This document shows, in pieces, positions 5,431-56,337 of a stretch of 64,000 nucleotides of DNA (positions are counted from its first letter, which is position 1; each line of letters begins with the position of its first letter). The notes beneath the pieces were generated by a model. The model saw nothing but the letters and a program-made list of their open reading frames with translations, was not told where the DNA came from and made no database searches. Both the position numbers and the translations under genes were made by a program. The DNA comes from Clostridiales bacterium (GTDB lineage Bacteria; Bacillota; Clostridia; Oscillospirales; CAG-272): NCBI GenBank assembly GCA_003522145.1, contig DPGD01000042.1:4945-68944 (forward strand), given 5' to 3'.

Positions 5431-5506
<76 letters not shown>

Positions 5507-5523: not shown

Positions 5524-5552
5524 ATTATAGCAAGTTCCCGTTCTTTTGTCAA
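5524..5552 (-). promoter_or_regulatory. Sigma-A type promoter of tRNA-Thr
   Basis: The minus strand has TTGACA, a 17-nt spacer and TATAAT, ending about 17 nt upstream of the tRNA 5-prime end. Confidence 0.75.
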
Positions 5553-5634
5553 GGGGTATTTCAAAAAAATTTAAAAAAACCGGAAATGCGGTGGAAGAGA
5601 CTGTTTGCAGGGGATGCTTGTTCTCCGATACTCA

Positions 5635-11553: not shown

Positions 11554-11733
11554 ACTGTCCCCGCACATCCGGCGACGGCGTTTTTCCCGCAGACCGGCGT
11601 TGCAAAAAGCGTTCGTACACAGTGTATTCCGGCGTTTTGGCGTCTCGTTCTTCGCAAGGACCGTCCGCCGCCGAATATGCCTTGAATATTCAGAGATGCT
11701 CAAATCCGAATGAGAAAAAGAAAGGAATCTATC

Positions 11734-13122
11734 ATGGAAGAAGCAAAGACCCTGAAAGAGCAGCTGCTCTTCAAAAAAAAGACGGCATACGAAGTGATGA
11801 CCGAGGAAGCAAAAAAGGAAATGGAGGAGTATTCCAAGGAATACATGTGGTATATCGACCATTCCAAGACCGAGCGGGAGGCCGTTCGGTCGGGAATTGC
11901 CCTGTTTGAAAAGAAGGGTTTTGTCCCCTACAGCATGGGCGATAAGATCGAAAAGGGCGGCAAGTACTATTTTAATAACCGGGGCAAGGCGCTGTATGCC
12001 TTCCGCATTGGCAGCGAGAGCCTTGAGGAGGGCATTCGTATTTCGGCGGCCCATATCGATTCTCCCAGACTGGATCTGAAGCCCAATCCGCTCTATGAGG
12101 AAGCGGATATCGGCTATTTCAAGACCCACTATTACGGCGGGATCAAGAAGTATCAGTGGACGACCATTCCTTTGGCCATTCACGGCGTGGTGGTGAAGAA
12201 GGACGGAACCAAGGTGGAAATCACGGTGGGCGAAGAGGAAAGCGACCCCATTTTCTATATTTCCGATCTGTTGCCCCATCTGGCAAAGGATCAGGTAAAC
12301 AAAACTCTCGGAGAGGGGATTCCCGGAGAGAAACTGAATGTGATCATCGGCTCTACCCCCTATGACCAGTCGGCAGACGGCGGGGTGAAGCTGCACATGA
12401 TGCAGATTCTGAATGAAAAATACGGCATCGTGGAACAGGAATTCCAGTCGGCAGAGCTGTCGGTGGTTCCGGCCATGAAGGCCAGAGAAGTGGGCTTTGA
12501 CCGTTCTCTGATCGCCGGTTACGGGCACGACGACCGGGTATGCGCTCATCCGGCTATCCGGGCGCTGGCAGACACCGACGAGAGCGTGCACACGGTGATG
12601 GCGATCCTTGCCGATAAGGAGGAGGTCGGTTCCGGCGGAAATACCGGTATGCAGAGCGGTATTTTCTTGGACATCATGGAAGAGATCTGCAAGAGCCTGG
12701 GAGCGAACTTCAATATTGTGAAGAACAACAGCAAATGCCTGTCCGCCGATGTGAATGCGGCATACGACCCCAACTTCGCCGATGTGTATGAGAAGCGCAA
12801 CGCCTGCACGGTGAACGGCGGAGTGGTGCTGACCAAGTATACCGGAAGCAGAGGAAAGGCCGGCACGAACGACGCCTCTGCCGAGTTTGTGGGCTATGTG
12901 TCCTCTCTGTTCGACAAGGAGCAGGTGCTGTGGCAGATAGGCGAACTGGGTAAGGTGGATCAGGGCGGCGGCGGCACCGTTGCGATCTACATTTCCTCCA
13001 AAAACATCGATGTGGTGGACTTGGGTGTTCCGGTGCTGTCCATGCATGCCCCCTATGAGTGCATTTCCAAGGCCGATCTGTATATGACCTACAAGTCCTT
13101 CTGCGCCTTCAACAAAGGCTGA
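11734..13122 (+). CDS. M18-family aminopeptidase (clostridial aminopeptidase-1 type)
   Basis: SAAHIDSPRLDLKPNP, HYYGGIKKYQWT, GYGHDDRVC and LADKEEVGSGGNTG. Start at MEEAKT (11734) follows AAAGGAA. Confidence 0.85.
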   Translation: MEEAKTLKEQLLFKKKTAYEVMTEEAKKEMEEYSKEYMWYIDHSKTEREAVRSGIALFEKKGFVPYSMGDKIEKGGKYYFNNRGKALYAFRIGSESLEEGIRISAAHIDSPRLDLKPNPLYEEADIGYFKTHYYGGIKKYQWTTIPLAIHGVVVKKDGTKVEITVGEEESDPIFYISDLLPHLAKDQVNKTLGEGIPGEKLNVIIGSTPYDQSADGGVKLHMMQILNEKYGIVEQEFQSAELSVVPAMKAREVGFDRSLIAGYGHDDRVCAHPAIRALADTDESVHTVMAILADKEEVGSGGNTGMQSGIFLDIMEEICKSLGANFNIVKNNSKCLSADVNAAYDPNFADVYEKRNACTVNGGVVLTKYTGSRGKAGTNDASAEFVGYVSSLFDKEQVLWQIGELGKVDQGGGGTVAIYISSKNIDVVDLGVPVLSMHAPYECISKADLYMTYKSFCAFNKG

Positions 13123-13130
13123 GAATCCAA

Positions 13131-13300
13131 GGGCTGTAAAAAATCTCGTTGAGAAGCAGAGACAACGATCGGCTGATCGAAGTCTCTGCTATTTGCTGCA
13201 AGAGAAAGGGAATCGGTGAAAATCCCCGAATCTGGGGCACAAAAGCCCAATTGGCGGCATTTTTGAGAATTTTCCACAGTTGGGAAAGCAAAAAATTCGG
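13131..13300 (-). repeat. Degenerate family-R fragment with a variant terminal hairpin
   Basis: GGGCTGTAAAAAAT half-hairpin, hairpin AGCAGAGAC..GTCTCTGCT (13155-13190, same variant as at 42581), then TATTTGCTGCAAGAG and GGCGGCATTTTTGAG blocks that match reverse-oriented copies. Confidence 0.5.
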
Positions 13301-13349
13301 TTTCCTTAAACCGCTTTTGACATCCGGGATTTTTCGTTGTGGCACTTAT

Positions 13350-15362: not shown

Positions 15363-16367
15363 ACGATATCTGCATTTTGCTGTTTTAGCCGCCATATTCA
15401 TGGTCGGCGAAGTGCTGATGGATCTGATCCAACCCGGTATCATGAGCCGGATTGTCGATGAAGGTGTTCTGGGACTTGACAATGGCGGAGTCAGCAACCT
15501 GAATCTGATCTGGGTACTGGGATTTCAGATGATCGGCTTGGTTCTGTTCGGAGGTCTTTGCGGCTCCCTCAACAATGTTTTCGTTCACATGACCGGTCAG
15601 AATATCGGCAACGAAATCCGGAAGGACTGCTTCGGTCGGATTATGACCTTTTCCTTCCCCCAGATCGACAAATTCAGCACCGGTTCCCTTGTGACAAGAG
15701 TCACCAACGATATTACACAGGTTCAGAATTTCGTATCTCAGTTCGTCAGAGGCATGATCCGGACCTCCATGCTGATGTTCGGCAGCATCTTCTTCATGTT
15801 CCGTCTGAACCGGGATTTCGGACTGATCGTACTCTGCGCCTTCCCCCTGATCCTCGGCTGTCTTGCCTTCTGTCTGACGAAAGCGAATCCCCTGTTCACC
15901 AAGTTGCAGACACATTTGGACACCATCAACAGCATCCTGCAGGAGGATATTTCCGGAATCCGCATCATCAAGGCATGCGTCCGGGAAATCTACGAAAAAA
16001 TTCGGTTCGGTAAGGCAAACGATGACCTGATCAAAACGCAGTTGAAGGTTCTTGTTATTTTTGCTTTTATGAATCCCATCATCAATGCGCTGATGTAGCC
16101 GATCCGAAAATCCTTGTTCTGGATGAGGCGACCTCCAATGTGGATACCCGAACCGAAAAGGCGATTCAGGATGCGATGCAGATGGTGATGTGCAACCGTA
16201 CCAGCATCGTGATTGCCCACCGTCTGTTTACCATCAGGGACTCGGATCTGATCGTCGTCATGGATCACGGACAAATCGTTGAAAGCGGCAATCACAACGC
16301 CCTGCTTGCAAAGAAGGGCAGGTATTACGAGCTCTATATGACCCAGTACGCCGGAATTGCCACCTGA
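15346..16367 (+). pseudogene. ABC exporter (fused TMD-NBD type) with a large internal deletion and frameshift
   Basis: 15346-16098 encodes an ABC type-1 exporter TMD (MWKYVKRYLHFAVLAAIFMVGE...) that stops at ..NPIINALM*. From about 16098, in another frame, the sequence reads [27 protein letters not shown]...[26 protein letters not shown]...YYELYMTQY. That is Walker B, D-loop, H-loop and C-terminus. Walker A, Q-loop and the LSGGQ signature are absent. Confidence 0.85.
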
Positions 16368-16482
16368 TGCAGGGCTTCGACAGAATGTTACATTACCAGA
16401 TCCAAAATAAAAGATTTTTCTTTTCAAAATGCAATAAAACCGCATGCCGGTGGATTATTCTGATGAAAGGAGCAAGTTGTAG

Positions 16483-16761
16483 ATGTCAGTGAATATTTCA
16501 ACCCGGGTCTCCGAAAACAACTTGGACGCAAGTGCTGAGAAACTGGATGAATATCTTGTGAAAATTGCCAACGGCGACCGCGAGGCGCTGGCGGCAATCC
16601 ATCAGGCGACAAGCGATAGCGTTTGCGGCTATGCCCTTTCAATTTTGAAAAAACCACATGACGCACAGGATGTTAAGCAACGAACTGACATCACTTTTCT
16701 ATTTCCGCTTTATATTCTTCGACTTGTCTGTAACCTCTTGGCAGAGCTAAAGGGGCTGTAA
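16483..16761 (+). pseudogene. Truncated sigma-70 (ECF-like) factor gene; only the N-terminal ~64 codons look sigma-like
   Basis: LVKIANGDREALAAIHQATSDSVCGYALSILKKPHDAQDV is a typical region-2 start. After about 16675 the frame turns into non-homologous AT-richer sequence and stops inside the family-R hairpin at 16752. Confidence 0.65.
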
Positions 16762-16918
16762 AAAAGCGAGTTTTTTACAGCCCCTCAAAAATGCCGGTCG
16801 GAATCCCGGCATTTTTGAGGCGGTCCCGGTCGGTTTTGCCCTCGATTTTTTTTGGAATTCAGGTGAGTTTTGCGGCCGTTGCCGGAGGTGTAAAAAGCTC
16901 GGACAGAGTTTTTACGCC
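16752..16918 (+). repeat. Family-R multi-hairpin repeat, short variant
   Basis: Hairpin A is GGGGCTGTAAAAAA-gcgag-TTTTTTACAGCCCC and hairpin B is TCAAAAATGCCGG-tcggaatc-CCGGCATTTTTGA. The core is GGTCGGTTTTGCCCTCGATTTT..GAATTCAGGTGAGTTTTGCGGC, and hairpin C is GGAGGTGTAAAAAGC..GTTTTTACGCC. Confidence 0.9.
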
Positions 16919-17084
16919 TTTTTTGTATATTCGGTGAAAAAATGAATATTAAAAAATCGGCTTATGGCCTTGAAAGGGCTCCCTCGGATCGGTGTTTTTT
17001 TGAACTTAAAGCAATATGACTATAAATATCAAATTTTCAATCTCAGATTTATTGAAAATAACGCAAATTATTTTCAAAAACGGT

Positions 17085-17114
17085 ATTGCATTTTTATTCT
17101 GTTTATGGTAATAT
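17085..17114 (+). promoter_or_regulatory. argG promoter overlapped by an ARG-box-like site
   Basis: TTGCAT (17086) - 17 nt - TGgTAATAT. ATTGCATTTTTATTCTGT (17085-17102) matches 13 of 16 defined positions of TNTGAATWWWWATTCANW. Confidence 0.45.
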
Positions 17115-17155
17115 TTATTCATCGAAGCGAAGCATCTGCGAAGGAGAAAAGAAAA

Positions 17156-18385
17156 ATGGATAAGAAAAAGATCAAAAAGGTTGTACTTGCCTATTCGGGA
17201 GGGCTGGATACCTCTATCATCATTCCCTGGCTGAAGGAGAATTACAACAACTGCGAAGTGATCTGCGTTTCGGGAAATGTGGGTCAGGCAAGCGAACTGG
17301 AGGGCTTAGAGGAAAAGGCACTGAAAACCGGTGCGTCCAAGATCTATATTGAAGACCTGACCGAGGAATTTTTACAGGAATGCGTGTTTCCCTGCGTGCA
17401 GGCGGGAGCGCTGTATGAGGGATATATGCTGGGCACGGCCTTTGCCCGTCCGTTTATTGCCAAGAGAGTAGCGGAGATTGCCCTGGCAGAGGGGGCTGAC
17501 GCCATCTGTCACGGATGCACCGGCAAGGGCAACGATCAGGTCCGGTTTGAGCTGGGCATCAAGGCTTTTGCACCGGATATGCCGATCATCGCTCCCTGGC
17601 GGGAATGGAGCATCAAATCCAGGGACGAAGAGATCGACTATGCGGAGGCTCACAATATTCCTCTGAAGATCAGCAGAGAGACCAACTATTCCAAGGATAA
17701 GAACATCTGGCACCTGTCCCACGAGGGCATGGATTTGGAGGATCCGGCCAATGAGCCTCAGTACAACAAGCCCGGCTTTCTGGAAATGGGTGTTTCTCCG
17801 GAGCAGGCACCCGATGAAGCAACCTATGTGACGGTACATTTTGAAAGCGGCGTGCCCACAGCTGTGGACGGTGTGGAAATGAATGCCACTAATGTGGTTT
17901 TGGCACTGAACAAGCTGGGCGGAGCCAACGGGATAGGTCTGTTTGATGTGGTGGAGAACCGTCTGGTCGGCATGAAGAGCAGAGGCCTGTACGAAACTCC
18001 CGGCGGAGCGATCCTGTACCACGCCCATGCGGTTCTGGAAACCATTTGCGTGGACAAGGAAACCCAGCACTACAAAGCATTGGTGGCACAGAAGCTGGGG
18101 GAGATCGTCTACAACGCCCAGTGGTACAGCCCCCTAACCGAGGCGATTTTAGCTTTTGTCAAGAGCACCCAGAAGTATGTGACCGGCGATGTGAAGCTGA
18201 AGCTGTATAAAGGAAACATCATCAATGCCGGTGTGACCTCTCCCTATTCGCTGTACGATCCGGAGATCGCAACCTTTGACGAGGACGAGGTGTACAATCA
18301 GGCAGATGCGGCAGGCTTCATCAACCTGTATGGTCTGCCCACCAAGGTCTATGCCAAGATGAAGGCAAAGAATCAGTTAAAGTAA
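17156..18385 (+). CDS. argG: Argininosuccinate synthase
   Basis: [26 protein letters not shown] and [22 protein letters not shown]. The upstream part of the track ORF is AT-rich promoter sequence. Confidence 0.95.
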
Positions 18386-20272: not shown

Positions 20273-20578
20273 ATGAAGGTCACGAAGAATAATTTTGAAG
20301 AGGAAGTATTGAAAAGCGAAAAGACGGTGCTGGTGGATCTGTATGCCGATTGGTGCGGTCCCTGCAGGATGCTGGCTCCGATTCTGGAGGAAGTAGAGAC
20401 GGAGCGGGAGGATGTGAAGGTCTGCAAGATCAATGTGGACGAGGAAGCAGAGATCGCCTCCTCCTTCGGCGTTTCCTATATTCCCATGCTGGTGCTGATC
20501 AAGGACGGGAAAACGGTTGCTTCAAGCACCGGATATAAAACCAAGGAGCAGGTGTTTGCCTTTATCGACGGGCAGTGA
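20273..20578 (+). CDS. trxA: Thioredoxin
   Basis: LVDLYADWCGPCRMLAPILEEV active site. 101 aa. AAGGAGGG RBS. Confidence 0.93.
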   Translation: MKVTKNNFEEEVLKSEKTVLVDLYADWCGPCRMLAPILEEVETEREDVKVCKINVDEEAEIASSFGVSYIPMLVLIKDGKTVASSTGYKTKEQVFAFIDGQ

Positions 20579-20704
20579 AAAAGCGGCAAGGGACTGTCGG
20601 AAATAGGTGCTTCCTTTCAGCACCCGGTCCGAAGATATACCGGGCTTGTTGCACCTATGGAATCCTGTTTTCGGGCTGTGCAAAAACGGACGGAAGAATA
20701 AAAA

Positions 20705-20909
20705 GGGGCTGTAAAAAACATCGAGTTTTTTACAGCCCCTCAAAAAAAGCCGGTGGGGATTCCGGCTTTTTTGATGGGATTTCGGTCGGTTTTGCCCTTC
20801 ATTTTGTAGAGATTTCGGTGGATGCTGCGGCAAAATGACGGCTGAAAGCCGTCAAAACCAATGTCATCGGGGATGCTAAAAAATTCCGAAAGAATTTTTT
20901 AACATCCCC
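20705..20909 (+). repeat. Family-R multi-hairpin repeat, long variant with four hairpins
   Basis: Hairpin A is GGGGCTGTAAAAAA..TTTTTTACAGCCCC and hairpin B is TCAAAAAAAGCCGG..CCGGCTTTTTTGA, followed by the core. The internal hairpin is GACGGCTGAAAGCCGTC and the terminal hairpin is GGGGATGCTAAAAAATTCCGAAAGAATTTTTTAACATCCCC. Confidence 0.9.
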
Positions 20910-20946
20910 TTTCGGTTTGGAAGAGGAAAGAGCCGGAAAAAATCAT

Positions 20947-22215
20947 TCAGCCGTTGTGCTCGGTGATTTTTTCAATGACTGCTCCGCACCGGCGGAGCTT
21001 GCCCACCAGATCGTCATAGCCCCGTTCGATCAGGTGAATGTTGTCGATTTCGCTTTCTCCGGCGGTGGCCAACCCGGCAATGACCATGGCCGCTCCTGCC
21101 CGCAGGTCCACGGCCCGCACCCGGGCCGGTCGAAGAGCGGTGCGCCCCTCAATGATCGCCGTTTTTCCGTCCACTTTGATCCGTGCGCCCATGCGCAGAA
21201 GCTCCTCCGTGTAGCGGAAACGGTTGTCGTATACGCTTTCGTTCAGGTTGGAAATTCCTTCGGCCAGACACATCAGCACCGCCATCTGGGGTTGCATATC
21301 CGTGGGAAAACCGGGATAGGGCTGGGTTTTCACATTGACTCGGGTAAGCCCTCCGGTTCTGGTCACCACCACATAGTCATCCCCCTCCAGCACCTCCACG
21401 CCCATTTCGCAGAGCTTTGCGGTGATGGATTCCAGGTGTCTGGGAATGACATTGGTGATCTTCACGCTTCCGCCGGTTGCGGCGGCGGCAATCATATAGG
21501 TGCCGGCTTCGATCATATCCGGAATGATGGCGTAAGTACAGCCGTGCAGGGCTTCCACGCCCTTGATTTTGATGGCATCGGTCCCGGCACCGGAAATCTG
21601 TGCGCCGCAGGTGTTCAGAAAGTTTGCTACATCCACGATGTGCGGTTCTCTTGCCGCATTTTCAATGACGGTCATACCCGGTGCGCAAACCGATGCCAGC
21701 ATCACATTGATGGTGGCACCCACCGAAACAAGGTCGAAGAAGATACTGCTTCCTTTTAATCCCTGAGGAGCGGAAATCTCCACATAGTTGCTGTCGGTCC
21801 GGACCGTACATCCGAGGGCTTCAAAACCCTTGATGTGCTGGTCGATAGGGCGGGAGCCGAAATCACAACCGCCGGGAACGCCCACATAGGCCTTTCCGTA
21901 GCGTCCGACCTCGGCGCCCAGAAGATAGTAGGAGGCCCGGATTTTCCGCACCAGCTCCAAGGAAGAACAGCCTCCCCGGACTCTGGTGCAATTTACGGAG
22001 ACCGTTGTCGGATTCAAATATGTTACCGAAGCCCCCATGTCCTCAAGAATGGTCAATGCGACCCTCACATCGTCGATGGAGGGCAGATTTTCAATGGTAC
22101 AGGTGTCTTTCACCAGAAGACATCCGAAAATAATGGGCAGAGCGGCGTTTTTCATGCCGCTGGTTTCAATTTCACCGTAGAGGGGCTGCCCGCCCCGGAT
22201 TACGATTTTCTCCAT
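20947..22215 (-). CDS. murA: UDP-N-acetylglucosamine 1-carboxyvinyltransferase
   Basis: MEKIVIRGGQPLYGEIETSGMKNAALPIIF, with the catalytic Cys context GVPGGCDFGSRPIDQH. 422 aa. Confidence 0.95.
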   Translation of the reverse strand: MEKIVIRGGQPLYGEIETSGMKNAALPIIFGCLLVKDTCTIENLPSIDDVRVALTILEDMGASVTYLNPTTVSVNCTRVRGGCSSLELVRKIRASYYLLGAEVGRYGKAYVGVPGGCDFGSRPIDQHIKGFEALGCTVRTDSNYVEISAPQGLKGSSIFFDLVSVGATINVMLASVCAPGMTVIENAAREPHIVDVANFLNTCGAQISGAGTDAIKIKGVEALHGCTYAIIPDMIEAGTYMIAAAATGGSVKITNVIPRHLESITAKLCEMGVEVLEGDDYVVVTRTGGLTRVNVKTQPYPGFPTDMQPQMAVLMCLAEGISNLNESVYDNRFRYTEELLRMGARIKVDGKTAIIEGRTALRPARVRAVDLRAGAAMVIAGLATAGESEIDNIHLIERGYDDLVGKLRRCGAVIEKITEHNG

Positions 22216-24984: not shown

Positions 24985-25021
24985 AAATGCAGGTTCTTTT
25001 CGCAAAGGTGTATAAAAATCC

Positions 25022-25194
25022 GGGACTGTAAAAAAATCATTTTTCACACCCCTCAAAAATTCCGGTGGGGATTCCGGCATTTTTGAGGCGATCTTGGTCG
25101 GTTTTGCCCTTGATTTTGCCGAAATTCAGATGGATTTTGCGGCGAAATGACAGCGGAGGTGTAAAAAACGCTGACGGAGCTTTTTTACACCTCC
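25022..25194 (+). repeat. Family-R multi-hairpin repeat, short variant with a degenerate hairpin A
   Basis: GGGACTGTAAAAAAA..TTTTTCACACCCC, hairpin B TCAAAAATTCCGG..CCGGCATTTTTGA, core GATCTTGGTCGGTTTTGCCCTTGATTTTGCCGAAATTCAGATGGATTTTGCGGC, and hairpin C GGAGGTGTAAAAAA-cgctgacggagc-TTTTTTACACCTCC. Confidence 0.9.
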
Positions 25195-25330
25195 CCAAAA
25201 GGATTCGTTTTGCGGTTTTACCCCGATCAGGCCGGTTTTTCCGACAAAAAGGGTTGTTTCAAGAGAGCGGTCGTGCAGGAAGAGGAGAATGTCCGGCAAA
25301 AAGAACAAAAAAAGGGGAGTGTTGCCCGAA

Positions 25331-37339: not shown

Positions 37340-38299
37340 TCAATCCTTCTTGGAGCCGATCCTCTGCCCCTGAAGCACCCGGTATTCGTTGTCCGGCGTA
37401 CAATGGCTCCGGATTTCGGGCAGAAGCTCAATCTTGTTCCTCTGGAAGAGCAGAACAATGGTGGAGCCGGCTAACTCGAAGTGTCCCATTTCCTCCCCTT
37501 TGCGGAAGAAGCGGTTTTCAAATTCGTTGACAATGCCGCCGACCAGCAGTGCGCCTACGGCGATCTGAGCCACCGTTTCGAAATTTTCGGTCTCCATCAA
37601 AGTCCACATTCTGCGGTTCAGCCGATAAACCGGAACCCGTTCGCAGGCGATGGGCTGTACACTGTGCAGGGTTCCGTTGATAAAGTGGTTTTTCCCCTGA
37701 AAACCGTTGTCAATAAAGCAATAGCGATGGTAGTCCAGGGGTGTCAGCCGGAACACCAAGCATTGCCCGCCGAGAAACAGCTCCGGCGCCCGCTCGTCCT
37801 GAACCAGATCCGAAACGCTGTAGTAGGAGCCTTTGATGCAGAAACGGCTGTCCTTTTCGATCGGATAAACACTCAACCATCCGTCGCAGGGACTGATCAT
37901 GTGCGAAGGGGTATGATCCACCGGCACATCGGGGCGTCTACGCACGAAAAAATCCTGAAAGTTTCTGAAATGCTGATCGCCAAAGGGGGACATATCAATG
38001 TTGTTCTTTTTTATGTACCGCTTGATGAGCGGTCTGGACATCCCGGTTCCCATAAACCATTCCGCCACGGTCAGGGCACCGGTATGCTGGATACCCTTCA
38101 GCATGATTCTGCCGGTGCGGGTGGAATAGAGATAATGAACAAAGTCACGCTTCTTTTGTCTTTTTTGGCTCTTTTTGTTCTTTTTCACTGTCACCGTATA
38201 CCTCACTTTCTCAAAGTGTTCTGTGCAGTATATAGGAGGAATTCCGAAGGCAATTTTCTCCAAAAAACCTGTCGGAAAGACTTTAAAGGGGATCTGCAT
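37340..38299 (-). CDS. psd: Phosphatidylserine decarboxylase proenzyme
   Basis: FQDFFVRRRP, SPCDGW, RLTPLDYHRY, and the self-cleavage site context FELAGSTIVLLF. The exact start is uncertain because the Lys-rich N-terminal region offers several candidates. Confidence 0.85.
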   Translation of the reverse strand: MQIPFKVFPTGFLEKIAFGIPPIYCTEHFEKVRYTVTVKKNKKSQKRQKKRDFVHYLYSTRTGRIMLKGIQHTGALTVAEWFMGTGMSRPLIKRYIKKNNIDMSPFGDQHFRNFQDFFVRRRPDVPVDHTPSHMISPCDGWLSVYPIEKDSRFCIKGSYYSVSDLVQDERAPELFLGGQCLVFRLTPLDYHRYCFIDNGFQGKNHFINGTLHSVQPIACERVPVYRLNRRMWTLMETENFETVAQIAVGALLVGGIVNEFENRFFRKGEEMGHFELAGSTIVLLFQRNKIELLPEIRSHCTPDNEYRVLQGQRIGSKKD

Positions 38300-38414
38300 A
38301 TCCCTACACCATACTACACTGTTTTTGTTTGATTGTCAAGATATTTCTGAAAAAACCGCTTGTGTTTCCGGATTGGCTTGAAAACGCAGGCTCCGATTGT
38401 TCAGAACAGGAAAT

Positions 38415-38587
38415 GGGGGTGTTTAAAAACTCGGTCAGAGTTTTTTGACACCCCCGATGACTGCCGCAAAGTCCACCGGAACTTCTATAAAATGAAGGGA
38501 AAAACCGACCAGGATCACATCCAAAATGCCGGATTCCCAAAGGCCTTTCGGAGGGGCTGTAAAACAAGCAGGTTCTTTTACAGCCCC
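38415..38587 (-). repeat. Family-R multi-hairpin repeat, short variant, reverse orientation
   Basis: On the plus strand, hairpin C is GGGGGTGTTTAAAAAC..GTTTTTTGACACCCCC. The core complement follows (GAAGGGAAAAACCGACCAGGATCAC), then a degenerate hairpin B, then hairpin A GGGGCTGTAAAAC..GTTCTTTTACAGCCCC. Confidence 0.88.
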
Positions 38588-38659
38588 TTCGGGATGGTTC
38601 TGTTAGCAGGGAGAAACTGACGGGGAGAAATTTCCGAAAGGAGAAGTATTCGGGCCTGT

Positions 38660-40594
38660 TCAGTTCTGCTCGATATATTTTTCTTCGGTTTCCTTAACCG
38701 CACGGGCAAGAAATTCCTCAAAGGGCACGCAGCCGGCATCTCCGTTTTTCCGATCCCTGACGGCAACCGTGCCTTCTGCCGCTTCCTTGGCGCCCAAAAC
38801 CAACATATAAGGTACCTTCTGCAGTTGGGCTTCCCGGATCTTATAGCCGATCTTTTCCTCCCGTTCGTCCAGCTCCACGCGCAGTCCCTTTGCCCGCAGC
38901 TTGGCCGTGACCTCTTCGGCATAGGGGTGCTGCTCCAAACCGATGGGCAGAACCTTTATCTGGACGGGTGCCAGCCACATAGGCAGTGCGCCTGCAAATT
39001 TTTCAATGATGAGGGCAAGGGTCCTCTGGTAACAGCCGATGGAGGTACGGTGAATGATATAGGGATTCTTTTTCTGACCGTCCCGATCCACATACTCCAT
39101 GCCGAACTTTTTAGAGAGCATCTGGTCGATCTGAATGGTGATGAGGGTGTCTTCCTTTCCGTGAACATTCTTGCACTGAATGTCCAGTTTGGGGCCGTAG
39201 AAGGCGGCTTCGCCAATGCCTACCTTGTATTCCACACCCAGATCGTCTAAAATCTTCTTCATGGTGCTCTGCGCTTCGTCCCACTGCTCCTCGGTGCCGA
39301 TATACTTTTCCCGGTTATTCGGATCCCACTGGGAGAAGCGGTAGGAAACATCCTGCTGGAGTCCGATGCATTTCAGACAATAATTGGCCAATTCGAGACA
39401 TCCCCGGAATTCATCCTCCAGCTGTTCAGGCGTGCACATCAGGTGCCCTTCGGAAATGGTGAACTGACGGACGCGGATCAGTCCGTGCATCTCTCCCGAA
39501 TCCTCGTTGCGGAACAGGGTAGAGGTTTCATTGTAGCGCAAAGGCAGATCCCTGTAGGAGCGGGCTTTGTTCAGGTATGCCTGATACTGGAACGGACAGG
39601 TCATGGGGCGCAGAGCTAAACAATCCGGGTCGTCGGGGTTGCCGATGACAAACATACCGTCCAGATAGTGATCCCAGTGGCCCGAAATTTTATAGAGATC
39701 GGATTTTGCCATAAAGGGAGTCATGGTAGGAATCCAGCCCCTTTTTGCCTCTTCATCCTCCACAAACCTCTGCAGAATTCTCACCACCGTGGCGCCCTTG
39801 GGCAACAGGATCGGCAGGCCCTGTCCGATCACATCCGATGTGGTGAAGTATTCCAGTTCTCTGCCCAACTTGTTGTGATCCCGTTTCTTGGCCTCTTCCT
39901 GCTTCTCTAAGTAGGCGTTCAGTTCCTCCTTGGAGGGGAAGGCGGTGCCGTAGATTCTCTGGAGCATCTTGTTTTTGGAGTTTCCCTCCCAGTAAGCGCC
40001 CGTACAGGCTGTCAGCCTGAAGGCTCTGACGGCGGCGGTAGAGAAGAGGTGCGGACCTGCGCACAGATCGGTGAATTCGCCCTGCCGGTAGAAGGAAATC
40101 TCCTCCCCCTCGGGAATCCGCTCAATGAGCAGTTCCTTGTAAGGCTCCTCTATTTTGCGCACCAGCTCCAGCGCTTCGTCCTTGGGCAGGGTGAAGCGTT
40201 CAATGCGCAGGTTTTCGCTGACGATCTTCTTCATTTCCTTCTCAAGGGCACGCAGTTGTTCCGGTCCGAAGGTGACTTCCGAATCAAAATCGTAGTAGAA
40301 GCCGTTTTCAATGGCCGGACCGATGGTCAGCTTTGCCTGGGGATACAGCCGTTTGACCGCCTGAGCCAAAATATGGGCGGCTGTATGGCGGTAGACCTTT
40401 CTTCCTTCCTCGTCGGCGAAGGTCAGGGGAGAAACGGCGTCGCCCTCCTTAAGAACCGTGGAAAGAGCCACCGTTTTTTGGCAGACGGTAGCCGCCAGCA
40501 CCTCCTTTGAAATCTTCCCGGCTTCTTTCAGCGCATCGTAAACGGTTGCACCGGAAGCACACTCAAAGCTTTCGTTTTCAATCAGAATTTTCAT
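38660..40594 (-). CDS. thrS: Threonine--tRNA ligase
   Basis: 644 aa with a TGS domain N-terminus, editing-domain HTAAHILAQAVKRLYP, and class II core motifs (FRNEDSGEMHGLIRVRQF). Confidence 0.95.
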   Translation of the reverse strand: MKILIENESFECASGATVYDALKEAGKISKEVLAATVCQKTVALSTVLKEGDAVSPLTFADEEGRKVYRHTAAHILAQAVKRLYPQAKLTIGPAIENGFYYDFDSEVTFGPEQLRALEKEMKKIVSENLRIERFTLPKDEALELVRKIEEPYKELLIERIPEGEEISFYRQGEFTDLCAGPHLFSTAAVRAFRLTACTGAYWEGNSKNKMLQRIYGTAFPSKEELNAYLEKQEEAKKRDHNKLGRELEYFTTSDVIGQGLPILLPKGATVVRILQRFVEDEEAKRGWIPTMTPFMAKSDLYKISGHWDHYLDGMFVIGNPDDPDCLALRPMTCPFQYQAYLNKARSYRDLPLRYNETSTLFRNEDSGEMHGLIRVRQFTISEGHLMCTPEQLEDEFRGCLELANYCLKCIGLQQDVSYRFSQWDPNNREKYIGTEEQWDEAQSTMKKILDDLGVEYKVGIGEAAFYGPKLDIQCKNVHGKEDTLITIQIDQMLSKKFGMEYVDRDGQKKNPYIIHRTSIGCYQRTLALIIEKFAGALPMWLAPVQIKVLPIGLEQHPYAEEVTAKLRAKGLRVELDEREEKIGYKIREAQLQKVPYMLVLGAKEAAEGTVAVRDRKNGDAGCVPFEEFLARAVKETEEKYIEQN

Positions 40595-42552: not shown

Positions 42553-42580
42553 CAGAAATCCTGAAAAGTTCTCGAAAAAG

Positions 42581-42621
42581 AAGCAGAGACAATGCCCGAA
42601 AGAGCAAAGTCTCTGCTTTTT
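42581..42621 (+). terminator. Terminator hairpin (variant family-R terminal module) after the foldase-like lipoprotein gene
   Basis: AAGCAGAGAC-loop-GTCTCTGCTT followed by TTTGCC. It has the same stem as 13155-13190 and is followed by TTTGCCGCAGAG..GATTGATTTCAGGAAGGGGGAAAACC, which resembles the family-R core in reverse orientation. Confidence 0.65.
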
Positions 42622-42711
42622 GCCGCAGAGGTGTTTTCCGATTGATTTCAGGAAGGGGGAAAACCTTGTTTTTACAGATTCTCCCTGCTTACCGAACCTT
42701 GTTCCGGTTTT

Positions 42712-43177: not shown

Positions 43178-44476
43178 TCAGGTCAATTCATAGCCGCCGC
43201 AGACCATTCTGAAAGAACCTTCAAAAAGAGCCCGGCACAGTTCAATCATATAGGCCGTGTCCTTGATTCCGGCGCTTTCATAGGCAGAATGCATGGCAAG
43301 CTGGGGCAAGCCCACATCGGCAGAGGAAACGGAAACCCTTGTGGTGGCGATATTGCCTAAGGTAGAGCCGCCGCCCATATCCGACCGATTGGCATAACTC
43401 TGCACCGGAATGCCCTCTTTTTTACAGAGGTATTTCACATAGGCTTCGGAGATGCCGTCGGTGGTGTATTTCTGACCGGCATTGAATTTCAGAACCACAC
43501 CGCCGTTCAGGACCACCCGGTTCTCCGGATCGGCATATTCCGGGTGATTGGGATGCACCGCATGAGCGTTGTCGCAGGAAAGAAGGAAAGAGGAAGCAAG
43601 TGCTTGTAAATAGTCCTCTTCCGCAGGACAGATGCGCCTTAAAACATCGTAAAGGAATGTGGAGGCCGCCCCCTGCCGGGTTCCGGAGCCTACCTCTTCG
43701 TTGTCAAAGACGGCACAGACCGGCAGAGATTTTCCTGCTTTGGCCGCGAGAAAGCCCTTCAGCGTGGAGAAGGCGCATTGCAGATCGTCTAAGGCCCTTG
43801 AGGAGATGTATTCCTGATTGCAGCCCCAGATGCAACCCTTTTGCCGTGCATAAACATAAAGGTCCTGCCCTAAAATTTTCTCCTCCTCCACACCCAGTTC
43901 TTGGGCAACCAGACTTAAAAACCGGCCTTTGGATTCTTTGCCGCCGAAAAGCGGGACGGTGTCTACCGCCGGATTGTATTTCATGCCGTCGTTGGCATTG
44001 CGGTTCATGTGGATAGCCACCGAGGGAATGAGCAACAGATCCCGATCGATATTCAGAAGCCGCATCTCCATACCCCGGTCGGTCTCCACCAGCACTCTTC
44101 CGGCCACCGACAGGGGTCTATCCAACCAGGTGGAGCAGATCATTCCGCCGTAACGCTCGGTGTTCAGCCGGACAAATTCGCCGGTCAGCTCCCCCTTGTC
44201 CTTGATCTTGAAGCAGGGATAATCGCTGTGGGCGGCGGAAATGCTGAAGCCGGTATAGTCCTTTTGGTAGCGGAAGGCAATGACGGAGCTGCCGTTCCGG
44301 CAGACAAAATAGCCCTTTCCCTCTTCCGGATTCCATTTTTCGCTTTCTTTGAGCTCGGTATAGCCCTCCTTTTCCAGCAGGGAGGATATGGTTTGCACGG
44401 CATGAAAGGAGCTGGGACTGGCATCAATAAAGTCCAAAAGCTCGGTGGCAAGTGCTTTTTCTTCATAGTTCTTCAT
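43178..44476 (-). CDS. M18-family aminopeptidase, second paralog
   Basis: FIDASPSSFHAV, SAAHSDYPCFKIK, FDNEEVGSGTRQGA, and the C-terminal GLPQLAMHS. Confidence 0.88.
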   Translation of the reverse strand: MKNYEEKALATELLDFIDASPSSFHAVQTISSLLEKEGYTELKESEKWNPEEGKGYFVCRNGSSVIAFRYQKDYTGFSISAAHSDYPCFKIKDKGELTGEFVRLNTERYGGMICSTWLDRPLSVAGRVLVETDRGMEMRLLNIDRDLLLIPSVAIHMNRNANDGMKYNPAVDTVPLFGGKESKGRFLSLVAQELGVEEEKILGQDLYVYARQKGCIWGCNQEYISSRALDDLQCAFSTLKGFLAAKAGKSLPVCAVFDNEEVGSGTRQGAASTFLYDVLRRICPAEEDYLQALASSFLLSCDNAHAVHPNHPEYADPENRVVLNGGVVLKFNAGQKYTTDGISEAYVKYLCKKEGIPVQSYANRSDMGGGSTLGNIATTRVSVSSADVGLPQLAMHSAYESAGIKDTAYMIELCRALFEGSFRMVCGGYELT

Positions 44477-45598: not shown

Positions 45599-45855
45599 AT
45601 GAAGAAAGGCTTATAAAGTCCGGTCGTTCGGTGGGAGAAACCGTGGTAACAACGGATGCGCAGTATGTCCATATGAGTACAGAATTGGCGAATCAGGTTG
45701 CACAGTACCACGGATTTGCGGGTGCTGAGGAATTCAAGGCCGCACATGGAGTGGGCTCCAAAGGATGGATGGCATATTATCCCGCAACGGGTCAGATCGT
45801 GATTACCGTTGAAGGGGCGGTTTTAGGTACGGAGTATTATGGAGGCTGGAGATGA
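45580..45855 (+). CDS. Hypothetical 91-aa protein
   Basis: MLFAELNEERLIKSGRSVGE...GTEYYGGWR. Stop overlaps the next start (ATGA). No family recognised. Confidence 0.55.
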   Translation: MLFAELNEERLIKSGRSVGETVVTTDAQYVHMSTELANQVAQYHGFAGAEEFKAAHGVGSKGWMAYYPATGQIVITVEGAVLGTEYYGGWR

Positions 45856-46649
45856 AAAAATATCCCGGAAGCGTAGGGAGCAGGGCACCGATTGCAGAAG
45901 CTGCATTGAATATTTACGGTGAGATCGCTCCCGGAATTCTGACAAAGGAGTTGGACTTGGAGCCCACATATACGGGGGACGGTTGTTGGCGGCTTTCCAC
46001 CGGAAGGTTTATTTGTTCCGATACTGCGTATGCTACCGATGCACTGTTGGGGTGCTTGGCATCCCGATACGATGCGTTGAGAGAGCTTTGCAGTACGCAC
46101 GGATTGCGTTCGGAGCTGGTGTTGACCCTGAATGTTGCAGAGGATCGGTTTCCCGAGGGAACGATCTCCCAAGAGTGTCTGCGTTTTCTGCACGAAACGG
46201 GAAGCAGTCTCTCCTTAAAAAACGAATATGAGAACGGAAGCGGGTTGTTGCCCGATTGCAGACTGCGCTACGGACTTTGGTTCAGAAGCAAAGACCTGCG
46301 TGCAGAGGATGTGACCGAAAGACTCCGGATAGAGCCGGATCATGTATTGGAGAAGGAAAAACTGTCAGGCGGTGTGACGGACAGAAGAAACGCATGGCTG
46401 TTGCGTACAGAGCTCCTGCCCTTTGAAGAGCAATCGCAGGCTTGCAAGGACTTTTGCAGCAAATTTATTGCCTGTGAAAGGGAAATCATCGAACTGCTTC
46501 GCATGAAGGAGACGGATGCGGAGCTTGACCTTTCTCTTTATACCGGTCGTTGCTCCTTTGATGCGCTTGTTCTTCCAAGGGAGCTGACCGAGCTTGCTTA
46601 CAGAATCGGAACCGAGATCTATCTCGGATTCTATGCCGTTCCCCGATAA
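45852..46649 (+). CDS. Protein with two tandem DUF4279-like domains
   Basis: Each half follows the DUF4279 pattern. It starts with a short strand ending in ..L.(I/L)EPT/D.. (LDLEPTYTGDGCWRLSTG and LRIEPDHV...RRNAWLLRTE). A helical middle follows, then an ending of the ..L.L..Y type (SLSLKNEY and EIYLGFY). GGAGG RBS. Confidence 0.6.
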   Translation: MKKYPGSVGSRAPIAEAALNIYGEIAPGILTKELDLEPTYTGDGCWRLSTGRFICSDTAYATDALLGCLASRYDALRELCSTHGLRSELVLTLNVAEDRFPEGTISQECLRFLHETGSSLSLKNEYENGSGLLPDCRLRYGLWFRSKDLRAEDVTERLRIEPDHVLEKEKLSGGVTDRRNAWLLRTELLPFEEQSQACKDFCSKFIACEREIIELLRMKETDAELDLSLYTGRCSFDALVLPRELTELAYRIGTEIYLGFYAVPR

Positions 46650-46714
46650 AAGCTGTATAGCGATAGCCTGCAGTCGTATTTTCGAATGAGAGGGTAAGCA
46701 GGTTGTAGGAAAAC

Positions 46715-46755
46715 GGGGCTGTTAAAAAATTCCGAAAGATTTTTTTAACAGCCCC
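46715..46755 (+). terminator. Solo family-R terminal hairpin acting as terminator of the DUF4279-like cassette
   Basis: GGGGCTGTTAAAAAA-ttccgaaaga-TTTTTTTAACAGCCCC followed by TTTTCTTTT. The loop TTCCGAAAGA is identical to that of the hairpin at 20869-20909. Confidence 0.8.
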
Positions 46756-47039
46756 TTTTCTTTTGGAGACCGACAATGGGCGCAGAAGGGAACGGGGCGG
46801 TGCTTTTCGGGTTGTATGCCCATTTGTTGTTGCATTCTGTTCCGGAGGAGGAAAAAGAAGCGGCCAATGGCAAAGAGGCGGTGTGCAGTGCAGTCCGGAA
46901 CAGAAGTCCGATGTTGGAAAATGCCCGGTTTTTTGAAGGAAGGAGAAGAACTTTTGGGCTTGACAGGTGAAGAAGAATATAGTAAAATAGACACTGGCGG
47001 GAAGGGCGAAGGTAGGGCTGAACCCCGGAAGGAGAAGGG

Positions 47040-50962: not shown

Positions 50963-50976
50963 ATGTGCAGAACACA

Positions 50977-51176
50977 GGAGGTGTAAAAAAGCTCAATGAG
51001 ATTTTTTACACCTCCGATGACATTGGTCCTGACGGCTGAAAGCCGTTATTTTGCCGCAGAATTCATCTGAATTTTGAAAAAATGAAGGGCCAAAACGACC
51101 AAGATCGCACCGGAAATGCCGGGATTCCGACCGGCATTTTTGAGGGGCTGTAAAAAATCGAATTTTTTACAGCCCC
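50977..51176 (-). repeat. Family-R multi-hairpin repeat, long variant, reverse orientation
   Basis: On the plus strand, hairpin C is GGAGGTGTAAAAAA..TTTTTTACACCTCC and the internal hairpin is GACGGCTGAAAGCCGT. The core complement, a hairpin B complement and hairpin A GGGGCTGTAAAAAA-tcgaa-TTTTTTACAGCCCC follow. Confidence 0.9.
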
Positions 51177-51216
51177 TTTTCAAAACACAAAATACCGGGA
51201 AAGGCGGAGGGGTTTT

Positions 51217-55902: not shown

Positions 55903-56048
55903 CCTGCTCCTCTGTTCATTTTTTCGGCAGGCGTTCCTTGAAAATGATTTTTAGGCTCTGCAAAGGCATCCCCGCACAGCGGGGAAGGGCGTTTCTGCTT
56001 CAGACTTTGCCGCAAAATGGCCTGAATCCCGCCGCCGAAGATACTTTG

Positions 56049-56096
56049 TATATTTGAATATTCAGATATTTAGATATTTAGATATTCAGAGATTCC
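56049..56096. repeat. Tandem 8-nt repeat ATATTYRR, six units
   Basis: ATATTTGA ATATTCAG ATATTTAG ATATTTAG ATATTCAG AGATTCCT. Confidence 0.8.
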
Positions 56097-56308
56097 TTTT
56101 TGCAGTCCTTTTTTGAAGGGGCTTCGTTTCGGCTTGGGAGAGGTTCCACGGAAGAATAGATGCGCTTCTACGGGAGCAGTGAGATTTCGCCCTGCAAAAT
56201 CTGCGGGCAGCAGTGTGCAAATTGCATAATACTGCATTTTGAAATGACGGATTTTGCGGTGGATATTCCAAAATCCGACCGTTGGAGTAAAAATTCTGAA
56301 AAAACCTC

Positions 56309-56337
56309 TTGACAAAAGAAGAGAATGCAGATATAAT
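56309..56337 (+). promoter_or_regulatory. feo operon promoter
   Basis: TTGACA, a 17-nt spacer and TATAAT. Confidence 0.8.

Follow-up and report, generated by a model that had tools for sequence, protein, structure and literature searches.

A 64-kb stretch of a contig from an uncultured human-gut Clostridia species (Clostridiales bacterium, contig DPGD01000042.1; the whole stretch is called the window in the following) holds six full copies of family R, a repeat of 167-218 bp that is built from palindromic hairpins around a conserved core. The family is dense, modular and strictly intergenic, and its copies lie mostly at the 3' ends of genes, as a previous reading made from the letters alone (the sequence-only reading) had described and as the window search and the contexts of the individual sites bear out. 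We consider it moderately probable that R is a lineage-specific interspersed mosaic palindromic repeat of the REP/BIME or SPRITE kind, which multiplied in the past, is now immobile and, to judge from its sequence form, would serve as a bidirectional terminator or 3'-end hairpin cassette. The copies share one anatomy and a biased placement, have a restricted distribution, and show inverted hairpin loops at orthologous sites; no target-site duplications, recent copies or insertion polymorphisms were seen.

Anatomy of family R

A profile (nhmmer) built from the six full or near-full copies that the sequence-only reading had claimed recovers all six in the window, with E-values of 8e-39 to 4e-59, and the same repeat families are recovered by a general repeat search (families D1-D5 and I1-I4). 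From left to right, an element consists of hairpin A, hairpin B, a conserved core, an optional hairpin D and hairpin C. The earlier four-part description of hairpins A, B and C and the core is correct, but it had overlooked the optional fourth hairpin D. The outer arms of A and C are inverted repeats matched at 12 of 14 positions (GGGGCTGTAAAAAA versus the reverse complement of TTTTTTACACCTCC, read from the sequence), in agreement with the earlier description of the element ends, and each terminus is also a complete palindrome by itself. Hairpins of the A/C type occur both in composite elements and solo.

The flagged copy c3 (copies are numbered along the window) is a long form at 20705-20909 (+; nhmmer 20697-20915, E = 5e-57), located between the convergent genes for thioredoxin (20273-20578, +) and murA (20947-22215, −). 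Its hairpin A (20705-20739, +) reads GGGGCTGTAAAAAAC-ATCGA-GTTTTTTACAGCCCC with AAAAA just before it. Hairpin B (20740-20774, +) reads TCAAAAAAAGCCGG-TGGGGATT-CCGGCTTTTTTGA and has the form typical of this part of the element: an A-run, a GC stem (here GCCGG/CCGGC) and a T-run. The conserved core (20775-20831, +; …GGTCGGTTTTGCCCTTCATTTTGTAGAGATTTCGGTGGATGCTGCGGC) is without supported pairing. The optional module D (20832-20862, +) contains the hairpin GACGGC-TGAAA-GCCGTC at 20837-20853, and hairpin C (20869-20909, +) reads GGGGATGCTAAAAAATTC-CGAAA-GAATTTTTTAACATCCCC, followed by TTTCGGTTT.

Module D (about 30 nt) is present in c1, c3 and c6, absent from c2, c5 and L011, and truncated in c4, the end points differing each time; its presence or absence accounts for the long (200-215 nt) and short (167-185 nt) forms. 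Here and below, L-numbered loci are stretches fetched from public sequence collections (metagenome contigs, genomes of relatives, and IMG/VR), 421 kb in total. Among paralogues, conservation amounts to 0.8-0.9 for the stems, 0.75-0.85 for the core, 0.76-0.85 for the arms of hairpin B, and 0.34-0.41 for the loops.

Copy c1 (1-157, +; nhmmer 1-164, E = 8e-39) is a long form cut at the window edge, downstream of an Fe-alcohol dehydrogenase gene (212-1444, −). It is nevertheless a full element, being complete between convergent genes in L021 (1407-1620), which runs past the left edge of the window. Copy c2 (16752-16918, +; nhmmer 16744-16926) is a short form without D upstream of argG; copy c4 (25022-25194, +; nhmmer 25013-25195), likewise short, is flanked by a gene for 353 aa (+) and one for an EamA transporter (−). 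Two copies are found in reverse orientation: the short form c5 (38415-38587, −; nhmmer 38405-38594), between thrS (38660-40594, −) and a psd gene (37340-38299, −), and the long form c6 (50977-51176, −; nhmmer 50966-51183), which begins 15 nt past the stop codon of a gene for 637 aa, with 41 nt between its other end and the Sir2-prfA genes. The two solo terminal hairpins that had been claimed are genuine, with matches to the terminal-hairpin part of the profile at E-values of about 2e-6 to 4e-6. One is of C type (2402-2440; GGAGGTGTAAAAAACTC-TGACC-GAGTTCTTTACACCTCC; profile match 2395-2442); the other (46715-46755; profile match 46712-46759) reads GGGGCTGTTAAAAAATTC-CGAAA-GATTTTTTTAACAGCCCC, then TTTTCTTTT, and follows a + strand gene (45852-46649). 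The degenerate fragments that had also been claimed do not reach significance: the profile matches at 13129-13150 and 13281-13338 have E-values of 0.41 and 0.83, and there is no match at 42581-42690 or 56240-56310. The stretch at 13131-13150 resembles a solitary left arm of hairpin A.

Placement of the copies

The window is ordinary chromosome (argG/argH, thioredoxin, murA, a GyrB/ParE-type topoisomerase subunit, addAB, thrS, prfA, feoB) and contains no transposase gene within its 64 kb. Among the 16 sites of R whose neighbours can be assessed, 8 are convergent, 8 are tandem and none is divergent. Convergent and divergent junctions each make up 22% of the junctions in the window, which gives P = 0.014 for at least 8 convergent sites and P = 0.017 for the absence of divergent ones. 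The elements start 0-60 nt past stop codons, in several convergent pairs on both sides, and hence leave no room for another terminator. At the tandem sites, five elements run with the genes and three against them. Copies occur on both strands although the GC skew stays positive from end to end of the window, so that there is no replication polarity. Since R marks the ends of operons, it helps to annotate 3' boundaries.

Terminator and promoter signals

Hairpin B is shaped like an intrinsic terminator for both directions. Next to hairpin A on the left, 57% of the adjoining 8 nt are A, and next to hairpin C on the right, 60% of the adjoining 8 nt are T, against a genomic GC content of 51%; hairpins A and C, read outward, therefore also look like terminators. 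A terminator scan flags hairpin A of c3 in leftward direction, with the tail TTTATTCTTC, facing the transcription of murA. These forms and the placement at 3' ends suggest a mechanism in which hairpin B would stop transcription arriving from either side, backed up for leftward transcripts by hairpin A with the A-rich flank before it, and for rightward transcripts by hairpin C with the T-rich flank after it. The outcome would be termination of transcription, protection of the mRNA 3' end, or both, for one or both of the adjoining genes.

No sigma-70-like promoter lies wholly inside R in the four window copies scanned, and R as a gene for a small RNA (sRNA) was rejected on this ground. A small peptide was likewise discarded as a candidate product: the candidate open reading frames (ORFs) of 11 aa (+) and 23 aa (−) are without conserved start codons, and no ORF is conserved, as the variants in the loop length of hairpin B shift the frame. 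We also rejected a portable outward promoter with the TTTACA of the arm as −35 element, for which a suitably spaced −10 element exists at only 1 of 36 element ends, namely in c6. The respective promoter-like site (51166-51193, +) combines the −35 TTTACA from the hairpin-A arm of c6, a 16-nt spacer and a −10 CAAAAT in the flank, and faces Sir2-prfA. The psd gene downstream of c5 has its own promoter-like site at 38339-38311.

Stem covariation and loop inversion

The sequence-only reading had noted that stems covary between copies, with loops differing freely. The first part is correct. In the outer stem of the terminal hairpins, five of seven pairs show compensatory changes across 13 distinct arm types; none of 500 shuffles reaches the observed score, and the stem covariation is therefore real. 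The second part is not, as many of the loop differences are exact reverse complements. The loop of hairpin B in c2 (16798-16805) reads TCGGAATC in the window and GATTCCGA in L017, which is the sole difference over 830 nt around c2, and the inverted loop recurs in L066 and L067, that is, in three independent assemblies in all. The loop of hairpin C reads CGAAA in L037 and L019 and TTTCG in the orthologous loci (L012 for the former; L015 and L031 for the latter), with flanks that are otherwise identical. Both loop orientations also occur among paralogues for each of the hairpins A, B, D and C. Hybrid or converted hairpin arms are found in L034, L013 and c1. Hairpin A of c4 is another example: its window version is degenerate and its L028 version intact, although the flanks differ by about 2.5%.

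Template switching during replication is known to make the arms of inverted repeats alike, to invert the spacer between them, and to mimic compensatory evolution (PMC8604942, PMC8794818). The evidence points to such template switching on DNA palindromes, and not to selection on RNA structure, as the source of both the covariation and the loop flips: loops invert, arms are hybrid or converted, and the helices proposed within the core are not compensated. The latter helices, TTGGTC/GACCAA and TTTTGCC/GGCAAAA, were obtained by single-sequence RNAfold and were rejected, since they are broken without compensation in L010, L022b, L034 and c3, and since short forms are without one of the partners. 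Template switching within each DNA hairpin would keep the stems perfect, the arms alike and the loops flipping, as the observed inversions suggest; perfect and covarying stems would be explained in this way, and selection on an RNA fold is not needed. The conservation of the individual segments, high in the stems and low in the loops, fits this explanation. We note that stem covariation arising at the DNA level is a caveat for covariation-based RNA discovery in repeat-rich intergenic DNA, for which the directly visible loop-flip polymorphism provides a neat caution.

Distribution

Further copies were sought with the profile and with a degenerate 22-nt pattern of the core, which fits five of the six window copies. 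In metagenome contigs the pattern matches 35 stretches; 31 of these prove to be real R copies, and almost all of them come from human-gut assemblies. At nine orthologous loci among them the identity to the window is 97-100%; L025 aligns at 94%, and L017 at 90% overall, solely through a divergent argG segment. The remaining metagenome loci add about 12 genomic sites beyond the window. About 20 sites beyond those of the window occur in human-gut contigs, which appear to come from the same species. At the densities encountered, a complete genome of the species would hold about 70-250 copies.

Outside this species the composite element was not encountered. In a collection with one genome per GTDB species, from which the host species is seemingly missing, the core pattern gives five matches; these lie in unrelated phyla, none is matched by the profile, and they are therefore attributed to chance. 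R was not found in plasmid or phage collections by BLAST. Two core-pattern matches in IMG/VR (L051 and L052) cover only about 29 nt of the profile (E of about 1e-3), contain no composite element, and were treated as chance. The 90% cluster of the window MurA contains only sequences at least 98% identical to it, and the next relatives stand at 84%; R is absent from 85 kb of four relatives (80-84% MurA identity), in which about 8 copies would be expected at the density of the window. Within the reach of these data, the family is thus confined to a single species-level lineage, for which it can serve as a species-specific sequence marker. Rfam contains no match to R at gathering thresholds or at E-values up to 10, the best matches on 20650-20950 scoring 12-22 bits against thresholds of 35-211, in line with the sequence-only reading, which had not recognised R as a named family.

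The palindromic unit of hairpin A (GGGGCTGTAAAAAA-loop-TTTTTTACAGCCCC, preceded by an A-run and followed by a T-run) is found solo in two viral contigs of IMG/VR (L053:116-148 and L054:14741-14773) and thus has a wider distribution than the composite element. These viral palindromes are accompanied by long tandem repeats and by part of an extra arm.

Three contigs of 1.0-1.5x coverage jump between R loci inside a terminal hairpin (L014:1140-1298, L025:816-1394 and L027:1233-1499). They were kept out of the evidence, chimeric assembly and real recombination between copies both being possible. L017 had been considered as a sister lineage of 90% identity; this was rejected, because it belongs to the same species and its divergent argG segment starts well inside the gene, not at the repeat. 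Its positions 1-2215 correspond to 16133-18347 of the window and are 99-100% identical through the repeat and on into argG, over approximately the first 540 nt of the listed ORF (at least up to 17500). The rest of the gene has diverged, with a whole-gene identity of 84%, which looks like a recombinant argG allele within the species.

Mobility and age

The element ends had been likened to those of a mobile element; the evidence from copies and strains argues against such mobility, at least at present. Flanking direct repeats were examined for 18 copies at offsets of −4 to +4: none has a target-site duplication of at least 5 nt, and a 4-nt repeat occurs in at most two. Target-site duplications can decay with age (PMC10969869). 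Paralogous copies are 66-90% identical (mean 77%) and never exceed 90%. Each of 23 contigs with this thioredoxin allele has c3, whose site does not vary in intergenic length among the six places listed, which stand for 25 contigs read with the allele, and it is also filled in loci L065-L069; c6, which the MAG GCA_934454135.1 also carries, is present and almost identical in 10 other assemblies; and the sites of c2, c3 and c4 are occupied in the MurA lineage that diverges most among those found. No empty site was seen among the strains examined, which were reached by exact-protein look-ups of the flanking genes and of the most divergent MurA alleles, and this lack of presence/absence polymorphism argues against current mobility, as the sequence-only reading had itself stipulated. 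Beyond the MurA cluster at 98% or above, identity drops to 84%, and the 3' flank of murA is not syntenic in the latter genomes; hence there are no informative intermediate genomes for an empty-site search.

Between strains, R diverges by 1.21%, compared to 1.6% for third codon positions, 0.88% for other intergenic DNA and 0.3-0.5% for first and second codon positions. The family looks old, fixed and close to neutral evolution. Its amplification would belong to the earlier history of one uncultured human-gut Clostridia species, in which the copies would by now be fixed and immobile.

No match to an IS200-like TnpA was found by tblastn in the 421 kb fetched, a weak test, and no conserved GTAG-like tetranucleotide was seen beside the palindromes. 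The arms of R may loosely resemble the ends of the IS6 family (GGTTCTGTTGCAAA).

Weighing the explanations

Several observations count against the reading of R as an immobile palindromic repeat with a terminator function. A role in termination or stabilisation is the most likely one, as judged solely from sequence form and placement. The simple terminator scan leaves hairpin B itself unflagged, because its T-run can pair with its A-run and the tail that is sought is consumed. Hairpins A and C alone have AT-rich upper stems, and a clean T-run does not follow them in every copy. A full copy is present at only three of approximately 11 convergent junctions in the window; for termination, the cell is therefore not dependent on R. 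The Sir2-prfA genes start 41 nt past c6, with no other room for a promoter, and must be expressed; at c6, either the element would be read through or the weak hybrid promoter would be used. Finally, the + strand of R folds 5.7 kcal/mol better on average (standard deviation 6.8), a difference that is confounded by shared ancestry and is lacking in c3, where both strands fold equally well; it may reflect the shared ancestry of a G+T-rich core or a weak bias at the RNA level.

Among the alternatives, R may be a selfish non-autonomous transposon, i.e., a classical MITE (a miniature transposable element with inverted repeats), moved in trans by a DDE transposase through the 14-bp terminal inverted repeats, the 3'-end placement being merely tolerated insertion. 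The size of R is within the MITE range (PMC10969869), its length is below 500 bp without coding capacity, and its ends are 12/14-matched inverted repeats in the range of 4-30 bp; moreover, its copies are numerous and dispersed in a single lineage and absent from relatives, they include truncated and short forms, and divergence within the species is near neutral. We nevertheless regard this explanation as unlikely, given that 0 of 18 copies has a target-site duplication, no pair of paralogues exceeds 90% identity, no site is empty in the strains examined, and neither a transposase gene in the window nor a parent insertion sequence (IS) with the ends of R was seen. Each terminal repeat is a whole palindrome that also occurs solo, which fits an architecture of palindromic units better than transposase-binding ends, and convergent sites are enriched whereas divergent ones are absent. 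The missing duplications are, on the other hand, what would be expected if R were REP/REPIN-like and had been spread as single-stranded DNA by an HUH tyrosine transposase (RAYT or IS200/IS605-type) that recognises hairpins A and C. Ends that are stable hairpins rather than simple inverted repeats, solo palindromic units, an extragenic location biased to convergent pairs as in REPs (PMC3184786), and loop inversions which show that the palindromes fold back as DNA would all suit such a mechanism. It is improbable in view of the lack of a tblastn match to IS200 TnpA in the 421 kb fetched (a weak test) and of a conserved GTAG-like tetranucleotide at the palindromes, the AT-rich stem tops (REPs being GC-rich), the conserved spacer, which at about 130 nt and with hairpins of its own is unlike those of REPINs, and the absence of signs of recent activity.

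The sequence-only reading had itself proposed that R is a functional structured RNA, either an sRNA or a regulatory or stabilising element of 3' untranslated regions (3' UTRs), whose fold is under selection. The predicted folding is indeed very stable, with −94.2 and −94.1 kcal/mol for the two strands of c3 (z = −8 and −10), and the compensatory changes in the terminal stems as well as the better average folding of the + strand by 5.7 kcal/mol are in favour of this proposal. We consider it very unlikely: the loops invert without consequence, arms are hybrid, the folding preference of the + strand is modest, inconsistent and nil for c3, and the proposed core helices are not kept by compensatory change. 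Copies occur in either orientation, tandem sites being split five to three, and no promoter lies wholly inside the four copies scanned. Rfam is empty even at E-values up to 10, divergence between strains is not below that of other intergenic DNA, and no small ORF is conserved, the changes in loop length breaking the frame. A more far-reaching and rather speculative possibility, to which we assign a low probability, is that Clostridia have in R a first repeat system that is REP/RAYT-like or depends on hairpins in some other way. It would then be either a self-propagating bidirectional terminator cassette recognised as folded single-stranded DNA by an HUH-type enzyme, or a repeat whose spread and uniformity result purely from template switching and gene conversion between terminator hairpins, with the loop flips as their trace.

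Other features of the window

A second small hairpin repeat is located at 13152-13200 and 42579-42627 (GCAGAGAC...GTCTCTGC followed by T(A/T)TTTGC(T/C)GCA). Its two sites are 80% identical, both lie after + strand genes in convergent gaps, and its tail resembles the reverse complement of TGCGGCAAAA in the R core. A tandem AT-rich short run (agatattt/agatattc units) is found at 56045-56095, in a long non-coding gap upstream of the stretch at 56240-56310 that had been claimed as a fragment of R.

In the relatives with 80-84% MurA identity (L047-L050), murA is directly followed by genes for an M18 aminopeptidase and a CBS-domain protein. The window has c3 and thioredoxin next after murA, and its pair of an M18 gene (43178-44476) and a putative CBS-domain gene lies 21 kb away; c3 is therefore situated at a breakpoint of synteny. 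The window contains two paralogous M18 aminopeptidase genes, at 11710-13122 (+) and 43178-44476 (−). A 92-aa ORF (16483-16761, +) has no match in Pfam and is called as a gene in other assemblies; it stops at a TAA inside the left arm of hairpin A of c2, so that its stop codon is supplied by the repeat. The sole Rfam match in the window is a tRNA gene (5434-5506, −), whose promoter region (5524-5573) resembles, in inverted orientation, a strong promoter-like sequence at 56288-56337.

Relation to known repeat families

Comparable families (REP/BIME, BOX, RUP, SPRITE, Correia) have been known for decades, and R is a new example of this well-known kind of repeat, not a new class of system. In practice, the family matters for a common human-gut species because R breaks and mis-joins short-read metagenome assemblies, as illustrated by three low-coverage contigs that switch locus within a hairpin.

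With prokaryotic MITEs (Correia, ERIC, QMITE2), R shares a length below 500 bp, terminal inverted repeats, a location that is intergenic or in 3' UTRs, transcripts that would form stable stem-loops, and the existence of size variants and truncated copies (PMC10969869). Truncated copies of QMITE2 resemble REPs (PMC10969869). R differs from MITEs in that it is without target-site duplications, an identified parent IS or insertion polymorphism, and is not AT-rich overall. The likeness to REP/BIME elements concerns both architecture, as mosaics of palindromic units that also occur singly and have conserved non-palindromic motifs between them, and placement, which is strictly extragenic, at 3' ends and in favour of convergent pairs (PMC3184786). 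REP/BIME elements have been linked to mRNA stability and recombination (PMC3184786). Compared to these, the palindromes of R are longer (33-41 nt) with AT-rich tops and no GTAG-type flanking motif, no RAYT gene turned up within the 421 kb fetched (a weak test), and the host belongs to the Clostridia rather than the Proteobacteria.

The BOX, RUP and SPRITE repeats of Streptococcus pneumoniae are highly structured, multiplied in the past of the species, rarely move now, and are nearly absent elsewhere (PMC3049150). R resembles them as a family of small, interspersed and highly structured repeats in a Gram-positive host that multiplied in the past, and BOX is likewise modular (A-B-C) (PMC3049150, PMC3184786). 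What sets it apart from all three is the number of hairpins (four), the conserved core of about 55 nt that is left unpaired, the two complete and nearly identical palindromes that bound it, and its host, an uncultured gut Clostridia species of 51% GC. There is no sequence similarity to them either (Rfam, which covers described RNA families, gave nothing), and a tandemly repeated internal module like boxB of BOX is lacking in R. The likeness to SPRITE is thus one of functional analogy only, without sequence homology, and consists in the terminator form of hairpin B, the A- and T-rich flanks, and the placement at the 3' ends of genes.

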